Below are positions 28,027 through 52,717 of a stretch of DNA of 59,534 nucleotides, in pieces (the first letter of the stretch is position 1; each line of letters starts with the position of its first letter). Under the pieces are notes generated by a model, which did not search any database, was not told the DNA's origin, and worked only from the letters and a program-made list of their open reading frames with translations. The position numbers were made by a program, and so were the translations under genes. The stretch is from IMG/VR virus record IMGVR_UViG_3300020393_000002, positions 1-59,534 of that record. One strand, 5' to 3'. This stretch comes from a virus (taxonomy: Duplodnaviria > Caudoviricetes).

Positions 28027-31000
28027 ATGGCAACATTTGACGTTAGCAATCCATTAGATGGCAGACTATATACATTTGAGATAGATGGTGACACTCCTAC
28101 AGAGCAAGAATCTCTTGAAATACAACAGTTTTTAGCTTTACGAGGTCAAGAGAATGTTGCAGAGCAAGTCCCTGATGATGGTAATTTATTTACAAAAGGT
28201 GTATCAAGAGGAATAGATCAGCTACAAAGAGCATATGGTGATGCTCTTGTAGGTGTTGGTAAGGGTTTTGGTATAGAGGGTCTTGTAAATTATGGGCAAG
28301 AAGTATCAGAAGAAAATACTAGACAATTAGAAGAACAAGCAAAGGATGCACGAAGATTAGATAGCATCAATGATCTTTCTACATTTGGTGACTATGCAGC
28401 ATCTACATTTGGCGAGCAGTTACCAAATTTAGCCCCATCAGTTATAGGCGGTGTTGTTGGTTCTATTTTTGGACCTGCTGGTACAGTTGGCGGTATTAAA
28501 ATAGGAACGATGATAGGTGCGGGCCTTGCTAATTTACCATACTTTTATGGCACTTTTGTTCCATCTGCCACAGATCCCGTTACAGGAGATGTTAATCAAC
28601 TAAAAGCACTCACATATGCAGCTCCATCTGCCGCCTTGGATACATTAGGTGATTTATTAGTTACTGCAGGATTTGCAGGTAAATTATTGTCAGGTGGAGG
28701 TTTGTTTACTAGGGCTGGAAAAGGCGTAGGTAAAGGTGTTGCAGCAGAGGTCCCGACTGAAATAGGTCAAGAAATATTACAAAGACATGCTGAAGGCAAA
28801 CCTCTTTGGAATCAAGAGGCATTAGACACATATATAGAAGTCGCTGCTGCCGCAGGTCTTGTTGGTGGTACAGTTAGTTCTGTTGGTAATATTGTAGGTG
28901 GAGATAAGGACAAACAGCCTGACAAGATTAGTCAATTAGATAGTGACGATAGAATAATGGCACAACAAGTTCAGACTATGAATACAAATGCTGTTAATTT
29001 TATTAATCAACAAAAAGATATAGAGAGTTTTAAAAGCACAGACGGCAAGTTTGTAACTCTCTCACAACTCCCAGATCATATTCAAGATGAAATAAAAGAT
29101 AAAAGAATACAAGAAATTACATATGCTGATGTCGTTTCTGGCACAACAGATTTCGATTTGGAGACAAATAAGGAGACTCTTACACAAGATGAGCTTGATG
29201 TTGCTATAGATAGAACTAATGATTTAGAAGCTGACACAAAAGATTTAGACTATAACAAAGTAAAAGATGCTGTTAAAAAAGAAGGGCAGTTTACACAGGC
29301 CATAGCTAAGAAGGCATTAAAAACTAAAAGTAAAAAGCCAATACCTCAATCTAAGATAAATGGAATCAGAGATAAGTTATTACAAAACAATATAATAAAG
29401 AAAGATAAAGCTAAGTTAGTTGCTACTTTATCTGAAGAGCAAGATATTAGGATTAAATCAGAGCAACTTAAAGCAAGAGTTAAGTCCATAATGAAAGACA
29501 TGGACAAACTACAAAAAGAAAAGAAAAAGTTAGGTGCTATAGGCGATTTATCTATAGATCAGGTTAATAGACTAGATGAGATTAATGGAGAGATAGATGA
29601 TCTAAGCAAGAAATACAGCGACACATCTAAAGCTGCCACTAATTTAGCAAGTAGATCAGACAGAAAGCTGGGTAAAAATGTAATTCGTCTTGGTCAAATA
29701 ATACCACCACTAGAGGCAAAAAATGCATTTGATAACGCAAATTTTAAAACAGATGAGTATAAAGCAAAACAAAATGCAGTACAAAAATCATTGAAGGCAT
29801 CTCTAGCTGCTATTGGATTAGGTAATATTAAGTTAGATTTTAAACCCATACTTACACCTAGAGGACAGCGGCCAGAAGAAGCAATAGCAGAGGGGACTGT
29901 CACAGAGGGTGTGTACTCTAATAAAACTATAGCACTTGCTATGGAAATATATGACCCAAGCCTTACAGAGACTGAGCTACAGCAAAGATTAGGCTCTGTA
30001 ATGAACCATGAAATAATACATGCTTTGTTTGAGTTAGGCGTATTTACACAGCAAGAGCAAAATATTTTAGTAAATGCAGCTAAAAATAGAAAATATGTAC
30101 AGATTATTAATGGTGAAAAGGTAGAAAGAAAATACACATATCTAGATAGAGCTAATAGAATGTATCAGACTAAGTCTGATGGCTCTAAATACACAGCAGA
30201 AGAGCAGGCAGAAGAGGCTATTGCTGAGTTGTACAGAGACTTTGCTGATGGCAAAATTGTGTTAGGTGGTAAACCTAAGACATTATTTGGTAGAATAATA
30301 AACTTTTTTAAGACATTATTTCAATCACATAAAGAAGCAGGATTTAATAAAGCTGGTGATTTATTTAGAGATATTGGCAGCACAAACTTTCAAAGAAGAG
30401 TATCTGAGGCTGAGAAGAAGAGCGCATCACCAGATGCTTTACAAGACTCAATAGAAAGAGAAAGTAGATTGGTTGGACCAAGCATTATACCTGATAACGT
30501 TCTAGAAACAGCACAGTTTATAAGAGCAAATAAGCAAAACTCTACAGATCAAACAAAAATAATGAACAAGCTATTTAAGAATAGACAGCTTGAAGAAGGT
30601 CAAATGGTCACAGTTAGACCTAATTTAAACGGCTTTGTGCAACTGGATGATGGCAGTATAGGGATGACGCAAACAGTACACCCTGCTAAATCATACGGCA
30701 CTGCGTTGGGATACGATAGCGTTGTTGCTATAAAAGATAGCGAGCTTATGGTGTCACCTCAGAAAAGAGCTGATATATACAAAGGTGTAACAAGAACTGG
30801 CGTTAAGCAAGACAAAGTCCCTATGGCTGGTGGTTATGGTGGAATAACAAATATATCCAGACAAGAGATAGAAGATATTGTTTCTAACCCTGATAACATC
30901 TTGTCTTTTAACCCGGGTAGCGAAGCCAGAGGTATAAATGGAACTCATTTATTTACAGATAAAAATGGATATGCAGTTAAATCTATAAAAGGTACAGCAG

Positions 31001-34000
31001 TTCATCTTGGTAGCAAGGTTTTTGTAAAAGGGAACGTTAACTTCTACACAGAGGATAATGCACCTAAGCCTGTGGATAACTTGCCGTCAGATGTAAAATA
31101 TGTACCTTTTGAGACAGAAGTCTCATTGATAGATAGAAAGAATCAGGAAAAGTTTAGTCAATTACGAGGTGAGATAAGAGCCAATATATCCGCAGCAACT
31201 GATAGCATAACTGGGTTAAGTGAACTGCAAAAGGCAGCAAACAAAGGTGATGAAGATGCTATGGTTGCGCTACAAGAAGTTGCAATAAACTCTGTTGATT
31301 ATTTAACTCAAGCAATACCAAATGTAGAAGTAGAGTCAACTCCAGCCTACGGCTTGTACGGTAGCGATCTAGAGCCTGCCGTAGGATTGAAGATAACATT
31401 TGATGAAGGAAGAAAAGATCTAGCTTTATCTGCTCTTGAAAAATTTGCTCGAAACTTTAATCAAGAACAAATACATGTAAGACAAAGAGTGACTGACAGA
31501 TTTGGAAGATTTAATAATCTAGTTGGTTATCAGTTTGGTGATGGTAGTTACAACACACCTGTGGTTAATTTTAGATTAACAGAGTCAATACCAACAAAAG
31601 AGCTATCAAGTATAATAGATAAAACAGGATTGGCAGGTTTTACTGTCACTGACAAATCATTACAGGCTTATTATTTAGGAGATCCAAATGACAGAACAGC
31701 AATCAGAGACTTCAGAAAATCAGTTAGAGGAGCAAGAAAACTTCTTGGACCAAGAATTTCAAGCCTTGATACAAGAGTTGAAAGACTCTGGGCTTACGGT
31801 TCAGGATACGGGGCCACAAATTCCTATGAACAAATTAGAGGCGACTTTCCACTCCCAGAGACCGATCAAGCAGACAAAACAGCAAATAGAATAGCTAATA
31901 GATTAGCGCAAAGACTAGTAGATCCAACTGTACAGGCTAAGACTCTTACAGACAAACAAAAGAATCTACAGATGGAAATAGCTAAAGACTATGATGCTAT
32001 GGGTATAAATAACTTAGATAACCCAACTGTTAGAAGAGCATATACTGAATTAGCACAAGAGGTTACAGAGCAATACAATGCGATGCCTATAAAGGTAGAG
32101 ATATATCAAGACGAAGGTGAGCCATATACAGGCGCTAGAATGTCAGAGGCTATGAGAAAAGATATACTTGCCAATAACCATCTTTATATTTTTGGAACAG
32201 AAGCTGCTACATTTGGGCCGGAAGGCGTGGTCTATGATAATCACCCATTATTAGAACCAACAAATATAGTAGATATAAACGGAAGACCTATGCTTGTTAA
32301 TGATTTATTACGAGCTGTCCACGATTACTATGCGCATACAATGTCCACTGTTGGCTTTGGGCCATTAGGAGAAGAGGCTGCATGGCGTAATCACATGATT
32401 ATGACTAAGAGTCCCTATGCAAGATGGGCTTTGACATCAGAAACAAGAGGACAAAATAGCTGGGTCAATTTTAACGAAAGCGCTTTAGGTGTAGAGAAGC
32501 TGTCAGATAGGCCGTTTGCAGAGCAAAAGGTTGATTTACTACCTGTTAAATATCTTATTACCAATGACCCTGAGGTTGATGCTAGTCTTGGTGAATTAAC
32601 AGATAGCAATTTTGATGCAGATCCTGAGAAATACTCTATCAAAGGTATAAAGCCTAGAGATTTAACAATATTAGATAGAATGGATGAGAATGGTCAATTT
32701 GAACAAAGGGCTAAAGTTGGTTCTGTAAAAATGACTGAGGCTGTGAAACAACTGCATGCAGAAAGAGGCAATATAACACTTGATATAAATAATGCAGAAG
32801 ATAGAGAACTTGCAGAATTAGCTATGTTTGAAGAGTTAAAAGCTCAGGTAGAAGCAGATGAGTCAGCTATTGGTTGGTATGATGATAAGATCAAACTTGC
32901 TAAAAAGTTATATGCAATATCAATTCCTATAATTAAAACTGATAAGAACGCTGAAGCTGCATTTGAATTTGTGTTAGCTATATCTTCTAACGGCGAGGCA
33001 GTCGTTGCGCAGAGTAATGCATTAAAAACACAAATGGAAAATTGGGAAAGAACTGGTGAGTTATTATTAGAAAATCAAGGCAGTCAAGCATCTGCTATGG
33101 AAAAGTCTTTTTTAACGTATAATATATTAAAAAAAGAAAAAGGCATGACAGACTTGGAGATAAAGAAGTTCTTGCAAGTTGTTAGATCAAAAAAAGAAAT
33201 AGAAAATGATCCACTAATACAATCTTTAACAAGCCTAACTGGTGGTAAAGTTACATTTAAACAAGAGACAGCAGATGAAATGGTGCCAATGTCTTTTATA
33301 TTTGGTAGCAAAATAGGTGCATTTTATCAAAATATAATAGGAAATTATGAATATCTTACTATGGATAGATGGTTTATGCGTTTTGTAAATAGAATATTTG
33401 GCGTGCCATTTAGAACAATAGGAGAAACAACTCTTGTAAAGAATAAACAAGATGCGCTTAGAGAGTTCCAAAAAGCATTAGAGTCAGGCACAGAAGATGA
33501 AATTAGTAGAATTAAAGTTGCAACAGATGAATTAGGCACAGATATAATTAATATATCGAATGTTGGAGAGCTTTCTACTTTAATAAATGGTAGATTTAAC
33601 AAAGATGTTGAAAGAATAAGAAGAAAGAAACTTGGAACAAAAGAATTTATAGACACATATAAAACAGAGTTTTTATCAAGAGCGCAAAGATTAGCTGAAA
33701 ACTTAGAGACAAGACTGCAAGAGACACCAAAGACACCGACTAACAGAAAACAGTTTAGGGTTTTATATAATAGAGTTATTGATAGATATAACAGACAGAC
33801 TAATAGACAAATAACTGTTGCTGACTCACAGGCTGTGTATTGGTACGGTGAAAAAAGATTATTTAAGAGCATCGGGGTAGCCCCGGGACAAGGTAGCGAT
33901 AACGATTATGTAGACGCAGCAATAGCATTTTTAAGAAAGGAAGGCATAGATGACCAAACCATTGGAGAAGCACTCCCCCCAACAGAGCGAGAGCGACTCG

Positions 34001-37000
34001 CTGATAAGCGAGGTGCAGGACAAGGATCTATCGATTCTACTGGACAGGTTGATACAAATATCGGGCATGAAAAAAGAGAGTACACCGAAGAAGAGTTAGT
34101 TGATTACGATCCGGCTAAAGACGTTGATCCTAAAGATTTAGAGTTAATTAAAGAAACAATAAACGATCAAAAGTTTGCCATGATATCAACTGGCAAACAA
34201 AACTCTGCGTATGGTGCAACAGGAGAGCTGGGTAAATATTTATACGGTGTTATAAATCTAGATAATAGAAGTCTTCCTGTGTTTTTTGTAGATGGTAAAC
34301 ATGAAGAAATACCCAGAGGTAATACATTTTTGTATAGTGGATTTGGAAACGATCACATTACAGCAGTAAGACCAACAACTGGTAAAAGCCATGAGCAAGA
34401 GTTATTAGAAACATTTAAATATAAAAATATAAAAGATTTGTTTTATGATAATCTTGCAAAATTATATTACCAGCAGAATAGGGATGACGTTAATAATGGC
34501 GTAGAGATTGTCAACACTACAGCAACAGGTGTTAGGCTAGAGTTTAACAGGACCCCACAAAGAGGGGCAAAGCAAAATAAATTTGTTATGCCTTTAAAAT
34601 TTGTTAAACGAGGAGAAAAGTTAGATGAGACAAGTCCTTCATTTAAGTTTGATTCTTTTGTTATAAGAACAGGTTATCCAGAAGAAAAACTATTTAAACA
34701 AAGTATGTTAAGCACTGCTTCTATGAATCAGCAAGAAACACCTATGAGTGGTGCTATAGAAAAAGGTATATCTAATACTAGAATAAAAATACAATACGAT
34801 AATCTATCTAGAGTTTTAGCAAAAGCTGGACATAAATTTAGTCTTGGTAGAATTGAAGAAGAAAATTTAAGAAAAGCCGCACAAAATTTATTAATTCAAG
34901 TTCAAGACAGATTTCTTCCTATTGGTGCTTTGATGGACAAGCTAAGAGAGAATGGTGCTGAGATTACTGATGCCATGGACACTTATATGCAAGAAGAATT
35001 ATTTCATGGAATAGCAGGTGCAAAAGTAGAAAAAGCACAAAAAGAATTTTTTAAACCAATGATTGAAACAATAGATACCTTAAATGTTAATCAAGACTCA
35101 TTAAATACATTGTCTAGAATATCTAATTTTTATAAAACAGCAATTGATGGCAGATATCCTAGTAGAAAAATGGCACTTGCAGACGCCATCCTTTACGCTG
35201 CGCATGCGAAGGAGAGGAATGATTATTTAAAAAATCCAATCGCATCTGGTATGCATACCAACGAGGCTGATAGAATAAATAAATGGATATTGACATTGCC
35301 TGACTCTGAGAAAACAAAGATAAAAAATATTAAAAACTTTGCAAAATCTATAGTCAAGAACACAAATGAAGAAAGAAAACAAGGTGGCCTTATTCCAGAG
35401 GTGTTTACTGATAAAGAAGGTAATCAGTATGAGAGAATATATGAAAACTATGTTCCACTAAGGGGTGACTTAAACTTTGAAGATGAAGCAGATAGTGACA
35501 GCAAGAGAGAAGAGAGAGCTGAAAACTTTGTAATACAAAATTTATTTGGTGCCACGAAGAGACCGGACCGTAAAGCAAGGGGAAGAATAAGATCAAAAGA
35601 GGGTGAAGCAGAAGATTTCTACGCAGAAAATATAGTTGCTACACTATTTGCACAAAATAATAAATCTATTGCAGATGCTGAAAGAAACAAGGTTGGTTTA
35701 AGTTATTTAAATCTTGTTAGAGGCATAGAAGATGGGACCACAGAAGTTAACGATAACTTAAAGAAAGAAATGCAGCACATAAGTGCGGTTTATTTTAATA
35801 AAGACGACATACCAAAGGATTTAGGCGAAAAAGAACAGTATCTAACTGTTAGAGAAAATGGCAGAAATGTTTACATAACACTTAACGATGCTAGAATAGC
35901 TAGGGCTATGAAAGGATTTATGACTCCTGATAGTGTAGGCGGCTTTACAAGAGCCTTAGGTAAACTGAATAGATATTTATCTAATATTAATACAACATAC
36001 AATCCATCTTTCGTTATACCAAACTTTGCTAGAGACTTAGGAACTGCTGGTGTAAATGTTCAACAGTATGACGAAAAAGGTTTAATGTCTGAAGTGCTTA
36101 AGAGTGCGCTACCTGCGGTGAAAGGCATATCTAAGAATTTAAGAGATGGAGATGTTGATAGCTTTTGGGCAAAAGAGTATACAAAGTTTGTAGAGTCAGG
36201 TGGTAAAAACGCAACCAACCAAATGAATGACCTTCAAGATCAAATGAATAGTATAAATAGTATACTTAGTGATGTGTCTGATAATAGTAAAAAAGGGAAA
36301 TTAGGCTTAGTTAAAAAAGGTTTTGGTAAATTAGGTAAGTTCTTAGATGATTACAATACAGCAGTTGAAAATGGTGTGCGTGTCTCATTATACACAGCGC
36401 TTGTAAAAAGAGGGGTTAGCACGGCTAGGGCTGCACAAGCAGCAAGAAACCTAACAGTCAACTTTGCGAAGGGTGGGGAGCAGAAGCAATTTTTAAATTC
36501 ATGGTATTTATTTTATAACGCATCAATGCAAGGATCAATGGCACTGATAAACGCTGCAGTTAAGTCGAAGCGGGTAAGAAAAGTGTGGGCTGGATTATTT
36601 GTTTATGGAGCTATGCAAGATGCATTTAACTCATTGTTGTCAGGTGATGAAGATGAAGATGGAATTAAAGACTATGATGAACTTCCAAGATATATATTAG
36701 AGCATAATTTTGTATTACCAACATTTGGTTTGGCAGAAGATAAGTTTATTACAATACCATTAGCATATGGTATGAACTTAGCTGTAAATGCAGGAAGAGC
36801 TGTTTCGAGAGCTGCTAGGGGCGAGTATACACCCGGGGAGGCTAGCCGGACCATATTTGGTACTGCATTTGAAAGTTTAAGTCCTTTTGGTGGTTTTGAT
36901 AATTTTTATAACTTGGCAGCTCCTACAGTGCTGGACCCATTTGTCAGTGTGGCTATCAACGAGGACTACAAAGGTGACCCTATATTTAAAGAATCACCTC

Positions 37001-37635
37001 AGTTTGCATCAAGACCTACACCTAATAGTCAGGCATATTGGTCAAGCACAAGTGGCACAGCAGTAACAATAGCTAATTTCTTAAACAGCATATCAGGAGG
37101 AGATGCAGTAGAAAGTGGCTTTATTGATCTTTCACCAGACGTTATGGAGTTTTGGTTTGATTATACAACTGGTGGTGTTGGAAGGTTTGTTCAAAGATCA
37201 CTAGAATCGCCTTTCAGGATATATGACGCTATCAACGAGGACTTACAAGCACCACTAACTAGTGTGATACCTTTTGCAAGAAAGGTAATAGCATCTCCAA
37301 GTGAGAGAGAAGATGTATCAAGTTATTTGGAAAATAGAAAAGCGTTATTCACGATACTAGCACGATACGACTTAGCCAGACGATCTGGTGATGTAGAATT
37401 AACAAGAGAAATATTCAGGGATAATAGAGAGCAGTTAAGTATTGTTCCAAGGCTCAAGGCAATAGACAACGCAAGAAACAGATTACTAAGACAAATAAGA
37501 GAGATAGAAAGAAACCCAAGACTAGATGAGAAAGTTATAAAGAACCTTATAAAGATAAGGAGGGATAGGATTAACGACCTCATGAGGCGTGGGCTTATCC
37601 TGATGAGGTCGGCTGGGTTTAGAGAGGCAAGTTAA
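28027..37635 (+). CDS. giant polyvalent ejection protein (HExxH peptidase, several effector domains, LPD38-like C-terminus)
   Basis: 3202 aa; HEIIH at 30007-30021; C-terminal IPLAYG, NEDYKGDPI, YTTGGVG. Confidence 0.8.
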   Translation: MATFDVSNPLDGRLYTFEIDGDTPTEQESLEIQQFLALRGQENVAEQVPDDGNLFTKGVSRGIDQLQRAYGDALVGVGKGFGIEGLVNYGQEVSEENTRQLEEQAKDARRLDSINDLSTFGDYAASTFGEQLPNLAPSVIGGVVGSIFGPAGTVGGIKIGTMIGAGLANLPYFYGTFVPSATDPVTGDVNQLKALTYAAPSAALDTLGDLLVTAGFAGKLLSGGGLFTRAGKGVGKGVAAEVPTEIGQEILQRHAEGKPLWNQEALDTYIEVAAAAGLVGGTVSSVGNIVGGDKDKQPDKISQLDSDDRIMAQQVQTMNTNAVNFINQQKDIESFKSTDGKFVTLSQLPDHIQDEIKDKRIQEITYADVVSGTTDFDLETNKETLTQDELDVAIDRTNDLEADTKDLDYNKVKDAVKKEGQFTQAIAKKALKTKSKKPIPQSKINGIRDKLLQNNIIKKDKAKLVATLSEEQDIRIKSEQLKARVKSIMKDMDKLQKEKKKLGAIGDLSIDQVNRLDEINGEIDDLSKKYSDTSKAATNLASRSDRKLGKNVIRLGQIIPPLEAKNAFDNANFKTDEYKAKQNAVQKSLKASLAAIGLGNIKLDFKPILTPRGQRPEEAIAEGTVTEGVYSNKTIALAMEIYDPSLTETELQQRLGSVMNHEIIHALFELGVFTQQEQNILVNAAKNRKYVQIINGEKVERKYTYLDRANRMYQTKSDGSKYTAEEQAEEAIAELYRDFADGKIVLGGKPKTLFGRIINFFKTLFQSHKEAGFNKAGDLFRDIGSTNFQRRVSEAEKKSASPDALQDSIERESRLVGPSIIPDNVLETAQFIRANKQNSTDQTKIMNKLFKNRQLEEGQMVTVRPNLNGFVQLDDGSIGMTQTVHPAKSYGTALGYDSVVAIKDSELMVSPQKRADIYKGVTRTGVKQDKVPMAGGYGGITNISRQEIEDIVSNPDNILSFNPGSEARGINGTHLFTDKNGYAVKSIKGTAVHLGSKVFVKGNVNFYTEDNAPKPVDNLPSDVKYVPFETEVSLIDRKNQEKFSQLRGEIRANISAATDSITGLSELQKAANKGDEDAMVALQEVAINSVDYLTQAIPNVEVESTPAYGLYGSDLEPAVGLKITFDEGRKDLALSALEKFARNFNQEQIHVRQRVTDRFGRFNNLVGYQFGDGSYNTPVVNFRLTESIPTKELSSIIDKTGLAGFTVTDKSLQAYYLGDPNDRTAIRDFRKSVRGARKLLGPRISSLDTRVERLWAYGSGYGATNSYEQIRGDFPLPETDQADKTANRIANRLAQRLVDPTVQAKTLTDKQKNLQMEIAKDYDAMGINNLDNPTVRRAYTELAQEVTEQYNAMPIKVEIYQDEGEPYTGARMSEAMRKDILANNHLYIFGTEAATFGPEGVVYDNHPLLEPTNIVDINGRPMLVNDLLRAVHDYYAHTMSTVGFGPLGEEAAWRNHMIMTKSPYARWALTSETRGQNSWVNFNESALGVEKLSDRPFAEQKVDLLPVKYLITNDPEVDASLGELTDSNFDADPEKYSIKGIKPRDLTILDRMDENGQFEQRAKVGSVKMTEAVKQLHAERGNITLDINNAEDRELAELAMFEELKAQVEADESAIGWYDDKIKLAKKLYAISIPIIKTDKNAEAAFEFVLAISSNGEAVVAQSNALKTQMENWERTGELLLENQGSQASAMEKSFLTYNILKKEKGMTDLEIKKFLQVVRSKKEIENDPLIQSLTSLTGGKVTFKQETADEMVPMSFIFGSKIGAFYQNIIGNYEYLTMDRWFMRFVNRIFGVPFRTIGETTLVKNKQDALREFQKALESGTEDEISRIKVATDELGTDIINISNVGELSTLINGRFNKDVERIRRKKLGTKEFIDTYKTEFLSRAQRLAENLETRLQETPKTPTNRKQFRVLYNRVIDRYNRQTNRQITVADSQAVYWYGEKRLFKSIGVAPGQGSDNDYVDAAIAFLRKEGIDDQTIGEALPPTERERLADKRGAGQGSIDSTGQVDTNIGHEKREYTEEELVDYDPAKDVDPKDLELIKETINDQKFAMISTGKQNSAYGATGELGKYLYGVINLDNRSLPVFFVDGKHEEIPRGNTFLYSGFGNDHITAVRPTTGKSHEQELLETFKYKNIKDLFYDNLAKLYYQQNRDDVNNGVEIVNTTATGVRLEFNRTPQRGAKQNKFVMPLKFVKRGEKLDETSPSFKFDSFVIRTGYPEEKLFKQSMLSTASMNQQETPMSGAIEKGISNTRIKIQYDNLSRVLAKAGHKFSLGRIEEENLRKAAQNLLIQVQDRFLPIGALMDKLRENGAEITDAMDTYMQEELFHGIAGAKVEKAQKEFFKPMIETIDTLNVNQDSLNTLSRISNFYKTAIDGRYPSRKMALADAILYAAHAKERNDYLKNPIASGMHTNEADRINKWILTLPDSEKTKIKNIKNFAKSIVKNTNEERKQGGLIPEVFTDKEGNQYERIYENYVPLRGDLNFEDEADSDSKREERAENFVIQNLFGATKRPDRKARGRIRSKEGEAEDFYAENIVATLFAQNNKSIADAERNKVGLSYLNLVRGIEDGTTEVNDNLKKEMQHISAVYFNKDDIPKDLGEKEQYLTVRENGRNVYITLNDARIARAMKGFMTPDSVGGFTRALGKLNRYLSNINTTYNPSFVIPNFARDLGTAGVNVQQYDEKGLMSEVLKSALPAVKGISKNLRDGDVDSFWAKEYTKFVESGGKNATNQMNDLQDQMNSINSILSDVSDNSKKGKLGLVKKGFGKLGKFLDDYNTAVENGVRVSLYTALVKRGVSTARAAQAARNLTVNFAKGGEQKQFLNSWYLFYNASMQGSMALINAAVKSKRVRKVWAGLFVYGAMQDAFNSLLSGDEDEDGIKDYDELPRYILEHNFVLPTFGLAEDKFITIPLAYGMNLAVNAGRAVSRAARGEYTPGEASRTIFGTAFESLSPFGGFDNFYNLAAPTVLDPFVSVAINEDYKGDPIFKESPQFASRPTPNSQAYWSSTSGTAVTIANFLNSISGGDAVESGFIDLSPDVMEFWFDYTTGGVGRFVQRSLESPFRIYDAINEDLQAPLTSVIPFARKVIASPSEREDVSSYLENRKALFTILARYDLARRSGDVELTREIFRDNREQLSIVPRLKAIDNARNRLLRQIREIERNPRLDEKVIKNLIKIRRDRINDLMRRGLILMRSAGFREAS
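31688..31894 (+). CDS. possible overprinted acidic ORF in the +1 frame of the giant gene
   Basis: AGGAG 6 nt before ATG; 68 aa, E/Q-rich. Confidence 0.4.
   Translation: MTEQQSETSENQLEEQENFLDQEFQALIQELKDSGLTVQDTGPQIPMNKLEATFHSQRPIKQTKQQIE
33950..34099 (+). CDS. possible overprinted ORF in the +1 frame of the giant gene
   Basis: AAGGAAGG 5 nt before ATG; 49 aa, MTKPLEKHS...LSILLDRLIQIS. Confidence 0.35.
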   Translation: MTKPLEKHSPQQSESDSLISEVQDKDLSILLDRLIQISGMKKESTPKKS

Positions 37636-45501: not shown

Positions 45502-45709
45502 AATATTTTTTCTCCCATTCTTTAATTAAGTTTTTAATTTGCATAGCCATTTCATATCGACCATCAAGAATACCTAGCTCTCGACTATCAACATCATCTT
45601 CATGGCTATGGCTATTATAAGTGCTTATCTCTGAAGATATTTCTTTTTTAATCTTAGCGATAAGTTGATTAGATAAATCGTCAGGATTATTTCGCATTTT
45701 TATCTCCAT
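45494..45709 (-). CDS. hypothetical protein
   Basis: Overlapping ORF chain; GI.DGR.E.A motif. Confidence 0.6.
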   Translation of the reverse strand: MEIKMRNNPDDLSNQLIAKIKKEISSEISTYNSHSHEDDVDSRELGILDGRYEMAMQIKNLIKEWEKKYYG

Positions 45710-46016
45710 GAATATATTTCATAAAATTTTTCATATCTTCTTGAGAAAGATGAATTACTCCCTCTTCGACCCACTCTCCATTTTCAAACATATCTATACC
45801 ATTTTTGCTTAAAATAAATTCTCTAAAACTAGGAACTTTTAGGAAAGCCTCGACCATTAGACCATGAGATTTACTCATAGAAGATATACCACTTTCCCAT
45901 CTAGGAATAGTTGAACTTCCAAAGCCTAATAACCTTGATAGTTCTTTAGCATTTTTATATCCCAATTCTTTTCTCAGAGATTTCATTTCATTTACATTTA
46001 TAGTTTCGATCTGCAT
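45687..46016 (-). CDS. XRE-family HTH transcriptional regulator
   Basis: KSLRKELG...ELSRLLG...STIPRWESG. Confidence 0.8.
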   Translation of the reverse strand: MQIETINVNEMKSLRKELGYKNAKELSRLLGFGSSTIPRWESGISSMSKSHGLMVEAFLKVPSFREFILSKNGIDMFENGEWVEEGVIHLSQEDMKNFMKYIHGDKNAK

Positions 46017-51201: not shown

Positions 51202-51495
51202 TTATGCAATTATTGTTCTGCCGTCATCTTCAACTTGAATTTCTTCAAGCTCGATTGATAAAATTTCATCATCATCAGCTAGGTAATCCTCAGGACAATC
51301 TACCCTATGCTTAGTGTGAAACTTATCCGAAACTTTAAGATAAAGTCTTTCTACTCTTTTAAGACGTTCAAAGAACTCGTCAATTTCCTTAGCCATATCA
51401 GGGAACTCTTCGCCCAAGCCATCTATTTGGTCAGCCGTTGAGTGCATACTCTGCATTAAATCCCATATCTTTTTGTGTAATTTTTCATAGTCCAT
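51202..51495 (-). CDS. small acidic early protein
   Basis: D/E-rich; AGGAG RBS. Confidence 0.7.
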   Translation of the reverse strand: MDYEKLHKKIWDLMQSMHSTADQIDGLGEEFPDMAKEIDEFFERLKRVERLYLKVSDKFHTKHRVDCPEDYLADDDEILSIELEEIQVEDDGRTIIA

Positions 51496-51522
51496 AATAG
51501 CAACTCCTATTTGTTAAATTAT

Positions 51523-51585
51523 CCTAGGACAAAGAGCAGTAATAACTGCTCAATGTTTCGACCTCTCTAGGTCTCGTCAGCTAGG
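51523..51585 (-). ncRNA. type I hammerhead ribozyme
   Basis: CCUAG CUGACGA GACC-UAGAGA-GGUC GAAA CA...UG UC^CUAGG; full core and three stems. Confidence 0.9.
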
Positions 51586-51850
51586 CTACATCATGCAATG
51601 ATCTTAGCTTTAATTTTAACTCTCTATTGATTTCAAAATGTTTAGCTAAATCTTGAAATCTTTTTGTTGGCTTTCCAAAGCAATCAGGATTGTCATACTT
51701 TCTAACTTTGGTCATGCCATGAACTCCATCTCTTTGATAGAAGATGGACATTACTTTGAGGTTATTATTTTTAATTACTGCAAAGTAATTTACACCATTG
51801 ATTGTCTTTTTAACTACGTTAGTAAATTTAGATTTCATTTCCCAATTCAT
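51581..51850 (-). CDS. small early protein
   Basis: AGGAG RBS; stop codon lies in hammerhead stem I. Confidence 0.7.
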   Translation of the reverse strand: MNWEMKSKFTNVVKKTINGVNYFAVIKNNNLKVMSIFYQRDGVHGMTKVRKYDNPDCFGKPTKRFQDLAKHFEINRELKLKLRSLHDVA

Positions 51851-51861
51851 AATAATTACTC

Positions 51862-52164
51862 CTATTCGCTATCTGTTAATTTAATTAAATGATCTACATC
51901 ATAGTTTGAACCATTTATCCAAATATCATGTAACTCCTGACCGATCATAGAGACTATAACTTTAGTTATTGGATTACATATTTGAGAAACTAAATTGTGA
52001 TCTAATTCATTTACTAAATCCATTGTCTCATAGTTACCAACAAACTTACCACCAAACTCCTTGTCTGTCGGACTATCTACATCAGCAATGTTTCCAAAGT
52101 TATAAGCATCAGATAAAAGTCTAAGTAATTTGATTTCGTCTTTATTTAGTTTTTTGAAATTCAT
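51862..52164 (-). CDS. first early protein
   Basis: GGAG RBS just downstream of the type III hammerhead. Confidence 0.7.
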   Translation of the reverse strand: MNFKKLNKDEIKLLRLLSDAYNFGNIADVDSPTDKEFGGKFVGNYETMDLVNELDHNLVSQICNPITKVIVSMIGQELHDIWINGSNYDVDHLIKLTDSE

Positions 52165-52187: not shown

Positions 52188-52240
52188 AACTGTTTCATAC
52201 TTTTGTAATCATCAGGCACAACACACATTGCACTACAGCC
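52188..52240 (-). ncRNA. type III hammerhead ribozyme
   Basis: GGCUGUA^GUGCAA-UGUGUG-UUGUGC CUGAUGA U-UAC-AAAA-GUA-U GAAA CAGUU. Confidence 0.85.
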
Positions 52241-52452
52241 TAGGACAAGAGGGCAACCGAATTGCCCTCACTATCGTTATTTGAAAAGCCGTACAGATTT
52301 CTAATATGTCTCAAAAATCTCTGACTATCCGTAAATTCTCTAAATAGCCATGTCCTCAAACCTTGGCTTTTCTTTTACCATGGGGAGAGCCTACTTCCTC
52401 CAAGACCTCGCCCTTTCACGAGAATGGGATTTATTGGCAAACTGAGCCTGAA
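52234..52452 (-). ncRNA. putative structured leader RNA
   Basis: Gap with no ORF in the track and several nested helices, between promoter and ribozyme. Confidence 0.5.
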
Positions 52453-52486: not shown

Positions 52487-52717
52487 ACTTATAATGTACT
52501 ATTTTATACTTTATTTTACAGTAATATACATAAATGTACTGAAACCCAAGGTGGACAACAAAAATGACGAAACAACTTTTTTTGATATATCATACCTTGG
52601 AAGTGCTTTCGTTGCTGTGTGCGTCTTAAATCGCTGACAATCGATATTTCACGAAATGAGAATATAAATAGATGGTTGCAAAGCTACACTTTTATTAATT
52701 CGTGTGCTACTTTGTAA

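Follow-up and report, generated by a model that had tools for sequence, protein, structure and literature searches.

A structured RNA, predicted to be released by a hammerhead ribozyme, heads a putative early operon of an uncultured marine phage

The HK022 put, P4 CI and P1 c4 RNAs are small structured RNAs derived from the initial portion of the early transcript of a phage, and the head of the mosaic early region is the usual place of phage functions for host takeover and counter-defence. In phage T7, the polycistronic early mRNA is cut between its units by RNase III, and the upstream products keep a stable 3′ hairpin. The RAGATH motifs, which lie mostly in phage-like DNA, are RNAs found near hammerhead or twister ribozymes; hammerheads themselves are defined by a conserved core, CUGANGA ... 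GAAA, and by a cleavage triplet, NUH. In the portion of the report by Perreault et al. used here, a hammerhead variant of the haloviruses HF1 and HF2 is placed 13 nucleotides (nt) upstream of the first early open reading frame (ORF), and tandem hammerheads are described as flanking ardA in Agrobacterium (PMC3088659). We analyzed the complete 59.5-kb contig (59,534 nt, hereafter the window) that represents an uncultured marine phage (IMG/VR record IMGVR_UViG_3300020393_000002). On its minus strand, positions 52452-52234 encode a 219-nt leader RNA, called type A below, that lies between a sigma-70-like promoter and a predicted type III hammerhead. A first-pass annotation, made from the letters alone, had proposed a new structured RNA at this place, and every stretch that it quoted proved to lie where it had put it. 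All features of the leader region given below are on the minus strand.

Related loci, numbered with an L where they are named, were collected by a search with the first ORF of the operon (20 viral loci from 35 pattern matches), a search with a 174-amino-acid (aa) ORF on the other side of the promoter (13 loci from 22 pattern matches) and an alignment of the first ORF (22 metagenome loci from 379 pattern matches). The resulting comparisons argue that 52452-52234 is a real structured RNA. In an alignment of 15 distinct homologues spanning domain 2, the capping hairpin and the ribozyme (alignment A3), 94.4% of 804 cells were paired, compared with 37-51% in slid controls, in which the 3′ partners were displaced by 1-3 columns. 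Of 54 pairs, 16 were changed on both sides, as against 1-4 after sliding, and the covariation score was 0.312 as against 0.03-0.09. RNAalifold, run on 10 sequences, predicted 62 pairs, 21 of them with compensatory changes, and the minimum free energy (MFE) fold of the 219-nt RNA alone reproduced the architecture drawn in the first-pass annotation. No stop-free frame was common to all homologues. With this absence of a shared reading frame and the pairing and covariation in A3, the proposal of a structured noncoding RNA at the start of the leftward operon is upheld.

Domain 2 (52283-52372, from A3) forms a three-way junction. Its closing helix, GAAAAGCC/GGCUUUUC (52372-52365/52290-52283), is fully paired in 15 of 15 homologues, with changes on both sides at four of its eight pairs; four versions of the helix exist, GAAAAGCC/GGCUUUUC, GAAAGGUC/GACCUUUC, GAUCAGCC/GGCUGAUC and GAUAAGCC/GGCUUAUC. 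The first arm, GGCUAUUU/GGAUAGUC (52349-52342/52330-52323), has three covarying pairs and gives way to another hairpin in six sequences, and the second arm, AGAUUUUU/AGAAAUCU (52320-52313/52302-52295), is nearly invariant, with no pair changed on both sides. The three helices had all been drawn in the first-pass annotation: covariation bears out the closing helix and the first arm, while the second arm hardly varies and draws no such support. The junction strands AAGGUUUGAGGA (AAGRUUUGAGGA in the homologues) and GUAC are invariant. RNAalifold also picked a pseudoknot, AGGA(C)/(G)UCCU, between the domain 2 junction and the 3′ tail, which lacks covariation and is disrupted in 2 of the 15 sequences. 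The motif UUUGAG(G)AC stands twice in type A, in the domain 2 junction (52356-52347) and on the loop side of the second arm (52316-52308); both copies are invariant in the 15 sequences and may be paired binding sites. A pattern made from domain 2 matched 14 viral stretches and nothing in 185,579 prokaryote genomes, and this pattern therefore gave no link to a host or prophage.

Between domain 2 and the predicted cut lies an 8-bp GC-rich hairpin, GAGGGCAA-UUCGG-UUGCCCUC (52269-52262/52256-52249), which had likewise been noted in the first pass; in A3 it is 100% paired and three of its eight pairs covary. Of 71 distinct 60-nt contexts, 60 have a GC-rich hairpin whose end lies at most 16 nt ahead of the hammerhead cut, against a shuffle mean of 2.75, so that the hairpin belongs to a general module and is not peculiar to type A. 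Two different contexts (approximately L193:4100-4360 and L206:1400-1590) share an insertion of about 150 nt, located in the capping-hairpin loop immediately ahead of a hammerhead. The insertion may be a small mobile or structured element.

The hammerhead variant directly downstream (52188-52240) was assigned on the grounds of motif, homology and covariation. Its core is complete, with CUGAUGA at 52215-52209 and GAAAC at 52196-52192. Stem III (GGCUGU/ACAGUU) is open, and stem I (GUGCAA/UUGUGC) and stem II (U.U plus UAC/GUA) are both closed by loops, which makes the ribozyme type III; the triplet GUA fits NUH, and the cut is predicted between 52234 and 52233. In A3, the hammerhead is 100% paired in the 15 sequences, four of six pairs of stem I and two of three pairs of stem II change on both sides, and stem III is invariant. 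A search of the relatives' loci gave 55 distinct homologues. Because the search pattern demanded the core, its conservation among them is true by construction and only the stems are informative: all 55 have a stem I of at least five pairs (35 versions) and a stem II of at least three inner pairs (10 versions). Their triplets are GUA (39), GUC (11) and GUU (5). The base of stem II is the pair G10.1-C11.1 in 14 of the 55, U.U in 40 and G.U in 1, and the window has U.U in place of the G-C pair. Natural hammerheads may begin stem II with a U10.1-U11.1 mismatch, and earlier work cited in the same report found that this mismatch allows more cleavage than any other mispair (Perreault et al., PMC3088659, in the part used here); G10.1-C11.1 is consequently not strictly defining. 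By homology, the window element is related both to canonical hammerheads and to a natural variant in print, and cleavage is predicted. With stems I and II covarying and canonical forms among the homologues, the first-pass suggestion that a ribozyme bounds the RNA downstream holds. A motif resembling a ribosome-binding site follows the type III ribozyme by 10-19 nt in 48 of the 55 cases; in the window, the site is GGAG (52176-52173), followed by the ATG (52164-52162) of the first early ORF, which encodes 100 aa and has no Pfam or PHROG family.

On the upstream side, the sigma-70-like promoter, as read from the sequence, consists of TTGACT (52486-52481), a 17-nt spacer and TATAAA (52463-52458), and its position makes a transcription start near 52452-52450 plausible. 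A consensus scan missed this promoter because it demands T at position 6 of the −10 hexamer. The relatives carry promoter-like hexamers at the same place. On comparative evidence, the reading of the leader as a ribozyme-released RNA is well supported, with the cleavage step as a prediction.

The body of the type A RNA (52239-52433) behaves as an exchangeable cassette. In L001/L024, a 44-kb viral contig, identity to the window is 96.2% over 2738 nt on one flank and 98.1% over 3374 nt on the other, and exactly 52433-52239 is replaced by an unrelated 188-nt RNA, type B; the exchanged stretch begins where a conserved 5′ element ends and stops at the ribozyme's CUGUA. This exact swap of a cassette between phages that are 96-98% identical on both flanks is new here. 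Type B is represented by three distinct sequences only, among which a few changes agree with pairing. More distant relatives carry type C, for which RNAalifold gave 42 pairs, 17 of them compensatory, across 22 distinct sequences. In type C, the 5′ element pairs with the 3′ end in a helix of about 20 pairs, behind which comes a CAA-rich linker, and there is no leader ribozyme; this long terminal helix may be a target of RNase III. Type C leaders are 174-253 nt long and occur in L003-L007, L013-L020, L043-L048 and L063-L169 (for example L013:2768-3000), with a conserved CCCCCACAAUUC strand, a hairpin with the loop GAUGA and the motif GCGAUAUGG; type C has no match in Rfam. A likeness to the cobalamin riboswitch, noticed by eye, was dropped when type C gave no match to it in Rfam at the gathering score or at E ≤ 10. 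Type D or other classes fill the slot in further relatives. The 39 leader-like contexts fall into seven similarity clusters, types A and B being joined only through their shared promoter and 5′ element, and we estimate from this clustering that at least seven leader classes occupy the slot across the relatives. RNA type and gene assort separately: one RNA type can stand ahead of at least six different first ORFs, and a given first ORF can lie behind type A, B, C or D.

Other parts of the region are mosaic as well. The first two early ORFs (51250-52161) are exchanged for shorter unrelated DNA in L022/L183 and L224/L021, and for an ORF with a weak HTH_3 match (45687-46016), L224 has other DNA in place of the segment 45699-46014 and L183 lacks it. 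Around both segments, the flanks keep 95-98% identity.

The 5′ element, UCAGGCUCAGUUUGCCAA (52434-52451; consensus of the relatives ACAGCCYCNNUUUGGCAA), is common to leader types A, B and C and forms the 5′ boundary of the cassette. A pattern built on it matched at least 119 viral stretches; about 26 true leaders stand among the matches listed, and the rest are chance hits, mostly in coding DNA. In type C, the element is the 5′ strand of the helix of about 20 pairs with the 3′ end and shows compensatory changes, and for type B, pairing of the element with the 3′ end beside the cut is predicted. For type A, three possible partners (UGGUAAA, CCUAGRCUG and CUGU) were scored, and none had compensatory support. 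The first of these concerns the closing helix that the first-pass annotation had given to domain 1, UUUGCCA/UGGUAAA (52441-52435/52380-52374). Its strands are complementary and pair in the MFE fold, but five of seven distinct relatives have a G.G mismatch without compensatory change, and we do not retain it.

The arms of domain 1 (52381-52428) were examined in an alignment of seven distinct sequences (A4), in which all 97 cells were paired (100%), compared with 33-57% after sliding. The hairpin UCUCG/CGAGG (52423-52419/52410-52406), drawn earlier as CUCG/CGAG, varies on one side only. The GGAG/CUCC arm of the first pass is real but is better drawn as a bulged hairpin, UGG(A)GGA/UCCCCA (52402-52396/52386-52381), with two covarying pairs. 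A possible pseudoknot, CCC/GGG (52428-52426/52413-52411), is invariant in these sequences. Hybrid relatives, read by eye, keep a bulged hairpin at the same place with a fully different stem. A by-eye likeness of the hybrid domain 1 to the fluoride riboswitch was set aside, as Rfam gave no such match at the gathering score.

The RNA family appears to be undescribed. The window gave no match in Rfam 15 at the gathering score, and local scans at E ≤ 10 (on 1001 nt and 151 nt) returned only chance-level rows of the small nucleolar RNA or microRNA type. No Rfam 15 family, riboswitches, RAGATH, IMES, GOLLD/ROOL, Y RNA and 6S included, fits the leader, in agreement with the earlier statement that it belonged to no recognized family. 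Nothing relevant was found at E ≤ 10 for the type B and type C leaders, and 37 related loci yielded type I hammerheads only. A search for tRNA and tmRNA found none, and blastn found no similar DNA among GenBank phages. Judged by titles and the openings of abstracts, no paper listed in searches of the literature on hammerheads in marine phages, on ribozymes in pelagiphages and on hammerheads in phage operons describes this RNA.

What the leader does is less certain than that it is folded. The main rival of the reading favoured below, a real possibility that we would nevertheless call tentative, is a cis-regulatory leader that senses a ligand, a protein or folding conditions and controls hammerhead cleavage, and hence the stability or translation of the mRNA; in such a switch, the 5′ element and the 3′ strand of the ribozyme, both of which contain ACAG, would compete for GRCUGU. 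Invariant nucleotides in junctions and loops beside covarying helices are typical of aptamers, types B and C pair the 5′ element with the 3′ end (by prediction and beside the cut in type B), and the hammerhead is only about 12 nt from the ribosome-binding site. In type A, ACAG/CUGU could form together with flanking pairs, giving 5-6 of 8 pairs in sequences for which a register could be assigned, and CAG is matched to the stem III CUG when the window is folded for MFE; however, this competing helix shows no covariation in type A. The leader matches no riboswitch family. A test for riboswitch features found no terminator called after the RNA, no sequestered ribosome-binding site (the site comes after the ribozyme and is left unpaired by the fold) and no consistent downstream gene, a result compatible with control of the hammerhead instead of an expression platform. 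The variation of downstream ORFs for a given RNA, and of RNAs for a given ORF, speaks against a gene-specific sensor but not against one acting at the level of the operon, and a swap between near-identical phages would be odd for the sensor of a common metabolite.

The ribozymes of the operon extend beyond the leader. A type I hammerhead lies in the gap between ORF2 and ORF3 (51522-51586, minus strand; Rfam Hammerhead_1, 29.8 bits, E value of 8.4e-6; gathering score, 34). L028 and L073 hold homologues that pass this score (34.6 and 38.1 bits, respectively), and 19 distinct versions occur in relatives, including a C-G to U-A change in stem I. The Rfam family RAGATH-1-hammerhead also appeared in the scan that scored this ribozyme. 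The window has a single type III copy; some relatives have one to two further copies between early ORFs, each preceded within a few nt by a GC-rich hairpin and followed 10-19 nt later by a ribosome-binding site (L007:1459-1515, L013:3963-4019 and two copies in L114, with others in L187, L200, L210, L217, L218, L228, L229, L231 and L232). With type III and type I ribozymes and capping hairpins recurring in this way, the early operon appears to be self-cut into units that end in hairpins, and the leader RNA appears, from its position among them, to be the first and only noncoding unit. A likeness between the leader hairpin, together with UUGUC CUAGRC, and a substrate or alternative 3′ half of the type I hammerhead was also considered and rejected: the sixth position of stem I would need three-way covariation, and among the six loci with both elements, only the window, L073 and L154 fit, L175 and L137 having a mismatch and the site of L181 differing at another base. 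The likeness probably reflects the shared design of a hairpin followed by a cut.

Recurrence of the module lends some weight to another explanation, in which the leader would arise incidentally from the general processing of mRNA and be kept as an insulator, either a stable 5′ structure or a spacer, without a function itself. The hammerhead-hairpin module follows an ORF in 49 of 88 distinct contexts upstream of a type III hammerhead, the remaining 39 being leader-like, and it precedes ribosome-binding sites in the 48 of 55 cases given above; a second hammerhead stands between ORF2 and ORF3, and tandem hammerheads are known in the polycistronic RNAs of prophages (PMC3088659, in the part used here). 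We nevertheless consider this explanation unlikely. Five helices kept by compensatory changes, together with invariant junctions, are unlike a spacer, and the RNAs that replace type A covary too, type C with its 17 compensatory pairs.

Two further explanations are modelled on known phage RNAs. The first-pass annotation had entertained a put-like antiterminator, that is, a processive antiterminator bound to the RNA polymerase that made it. The RNA does lie directly downstream of the early promoter and is rich in stems, with a terminator-like hairpin after them, but that hairpin has no U tract and was not called as a terminator, and the hammerhead would sever the RNA from the polymerase. The put RNA has two stems and roughly 70 nt, unlike a leader of about 219 nt with a three-way junction. 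Moreover, unrelated RNAs fill the slot in near-identical phages, which presumably meet the same host RNA polymerase. An RNA apparently designed for release and replaced in this way disfavours antitermination, which we regard as very unlikely. Less probable still, and in our view hardly credible, is an antisense RNA for immunity or exclusion of the P4 CI or P1 c4 kind, derived from the leader and pairing with transcripts of the phage itself. Such an RNA would be processed from the leader of the early operon, and the leader does have alleles in closely related phages, as is the case in the heteroimmune phages P1 and P7. However, no complementarity of 12 nt or more was found to either of the genome's two transcript sets, 11-mers occurred at the shuffle rate (early, 2 against 1.2; late, 3 against 3.5), as did 10-mers, and the ORFs scanned included no integrase or clear repressor.

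We favour a discrete noncoding RNA of about 219 nt, released by the ribozyme as the first unit of the early operon and acting in trans on a host factor, a reading to which we give an even chance. In the scheme that we infer, covering promoter, start site, self-cleavage, product stability and function, host RNA polymerase would begin at the sigma-70-like promoter, and the nascent RNA would fold into the two hairpins of domain 1, the three-way junction of domain 2 with its invariant nucleotides and the GC-rich 3′ hairpin. The type III hammerhead would then cut after A52234. The freed RNA would carry a 5′ triphosphate and a hairpin-capped 3′ end with a 2′,3′-cyclic phosphate, and the mRNA of the first ORF would start with a 5′-OH and retain the ribozyme body, with about 12 nt between that body and the ribosome-binding site. 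Early in infection, the RNA would bind a host protein or a defence component as a decoy or sponge, and would not regulate the ORF behind it. A separate RNA product is favoured because the fold is kept by compensatory changes, the promoter and the ribozyme with its hairpin delimit the RNA, it assorts independently of the genes and it is replaced in near-identical genomes. A trans-acting decoy or sponge is favoured because such a product stands in the early region, and this role, already among those proposed in the first pass, would also fit the cassette-like swapping.

Several observations weigh against the trans-acting reading. The proposed function is argued from modularity and swapping. GRCUGU, a strand of stem III, has a second possible partner in the ACAG of the 5′ element, which would fit a cis switch, and the presence of the module between ORFs (49 of 88 contexts) means that the ribozyme may serve general mRNA processing and not release. 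The window hammerhead had no Rfam match at the gathering score, nor at E ≤ 10 in the 1001-nt and 151-nt scans, probably because its stem II begins with U.U. The folding energy of the 219-nt RNA has a z-score of −1.82, with 14 of 200 shuffles equally good (antisense strand, −0.89; RNA plus downstream untranslated region, −1.32), and thermodynamics alone is insufficient for the claim, as the energy is only modestly better than that of shuffles. The two RNA-seq contigs that could be aligned cover only 51503-51659 and 51774-51970, outside the leader, which is not evidence of its absence.

A broader version takes the slot as an RNA arms-race locus of abundant marine phages, filled by unrelated self-releasing RNAs of at least seven classes that would each neutralize or hijack a different host factor or defence within minutes of infection. 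Some classes would owe their release to a hammerhead and others would be closed by a long terminal helix, and exchange between genomes that are otherwise identical would proceed by recombination at the 5′ element and the ribozyme. We consider this version, the manner of exchange included, conceivable but rather doubtful.

The genome around the leader places the phage near known relatives. Its terminase is 52-55% identical to its counterparts in two Pelagibacter phages, HTVC027P and HTVC023P, and in two marine phages that are uncultured, and by this measure the phage is related to pelagiphages. Rightward from 52748 run the 174-aa ORF, the large terminase, a large ORF without assignment, further ORFs and a 3202-aa protein. 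Leftward from about 52460 run small ORFs without a family, followed by an ATPase, a DUF2201 protein, an exonuclease and others. This layout puts the RNA at the head of the leftward operon, and gene content and layout together suggest that the operon is early. The 3202-aa ORF (28027-37635, plus strand) has LPD38, a large polyvalent protein associated domain, as its sole Pfam domain; with only this domain found, we did not retain the idea of an N4-like virion RNA polymerase, which would alter the promoter logic.

Upstream of the early promoter, the intergenic region 52500-52700 holds blocks such as CTCATTTCGTGAAA and GTTTC..TTTTTGTTGTCCACCTTG..TTACAG, which are kept even in distant relatives. 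Used as a control, the conserved noncoding block just upstream of the promoter gave no consensus pair in eight sequences, and a second RNA at that place was rejected on this result; the blocks are probably DNA-level sites for regulator binding, packaging or an origin. In L035, L038, L041, L154, L176 and others, direct repeats of TTTACA spaced by about 11 nt and followed by TATTTGGGCTTGTAT lie 60-110 nt upstream of the 5′ element, just upstream of the early promoter and overlapping it. These repeats are absent from the lineage of the window, which carries TTGACT-N17-TATAAA there.

Relatives of this phage are present in many marine viral and metagenome contigs. If the favoured reading is true, the first product of these phages would be a folded RNA and not a protein, self-excised and exchangeable like a gene cassette. 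Several classes of structured RNA (A, B, C, D and others), all absent from Rfam 15, would be added, and phage hammerheads would gain a concrete job, the division of an early operon into hairpin-capped units. It would also hint at RNA-based host takeover or counter-defence in streamlined marine bacteria. Should the slot be an arms-race locus, it would be an RNA counterpart of the islands of protein anti-defence genes that start phage early operons.

Among described systems, the hammerheads of phages and prophages are like this one in several respects: in the portion of PMC3088659 used here, they too lie a few nt ahead of an early ORF, may number several per operon and include natural U10.1-U11.1 forms. 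They differ in what precedes the ribozyme. Here a covarying 219-nt RNA that is exchanged as a cassette fills the gap between promoter and ribozyme, and the capping hairpin before the cut belongs to the module; that portion of the report describes no structured RNA upstream of its hammerheads. The RAGATH motifs share with the leader a genomic tie between structured RNAs and self-cleaving ribozymes in mobile DNA, although the leader matches none of them at the gathering score or locally at E ≤ 10. The put, P4 CI and P1 c4 RNAs differ from it in size and fold; the leader has no antisense targets in the transcript sets searched, and its predicted release argues against polymerase tethering. In contrast to the RNase III processing of T7, the cuts here would be made by ribozymes within the RNA itself, and the first unit is noncoding.

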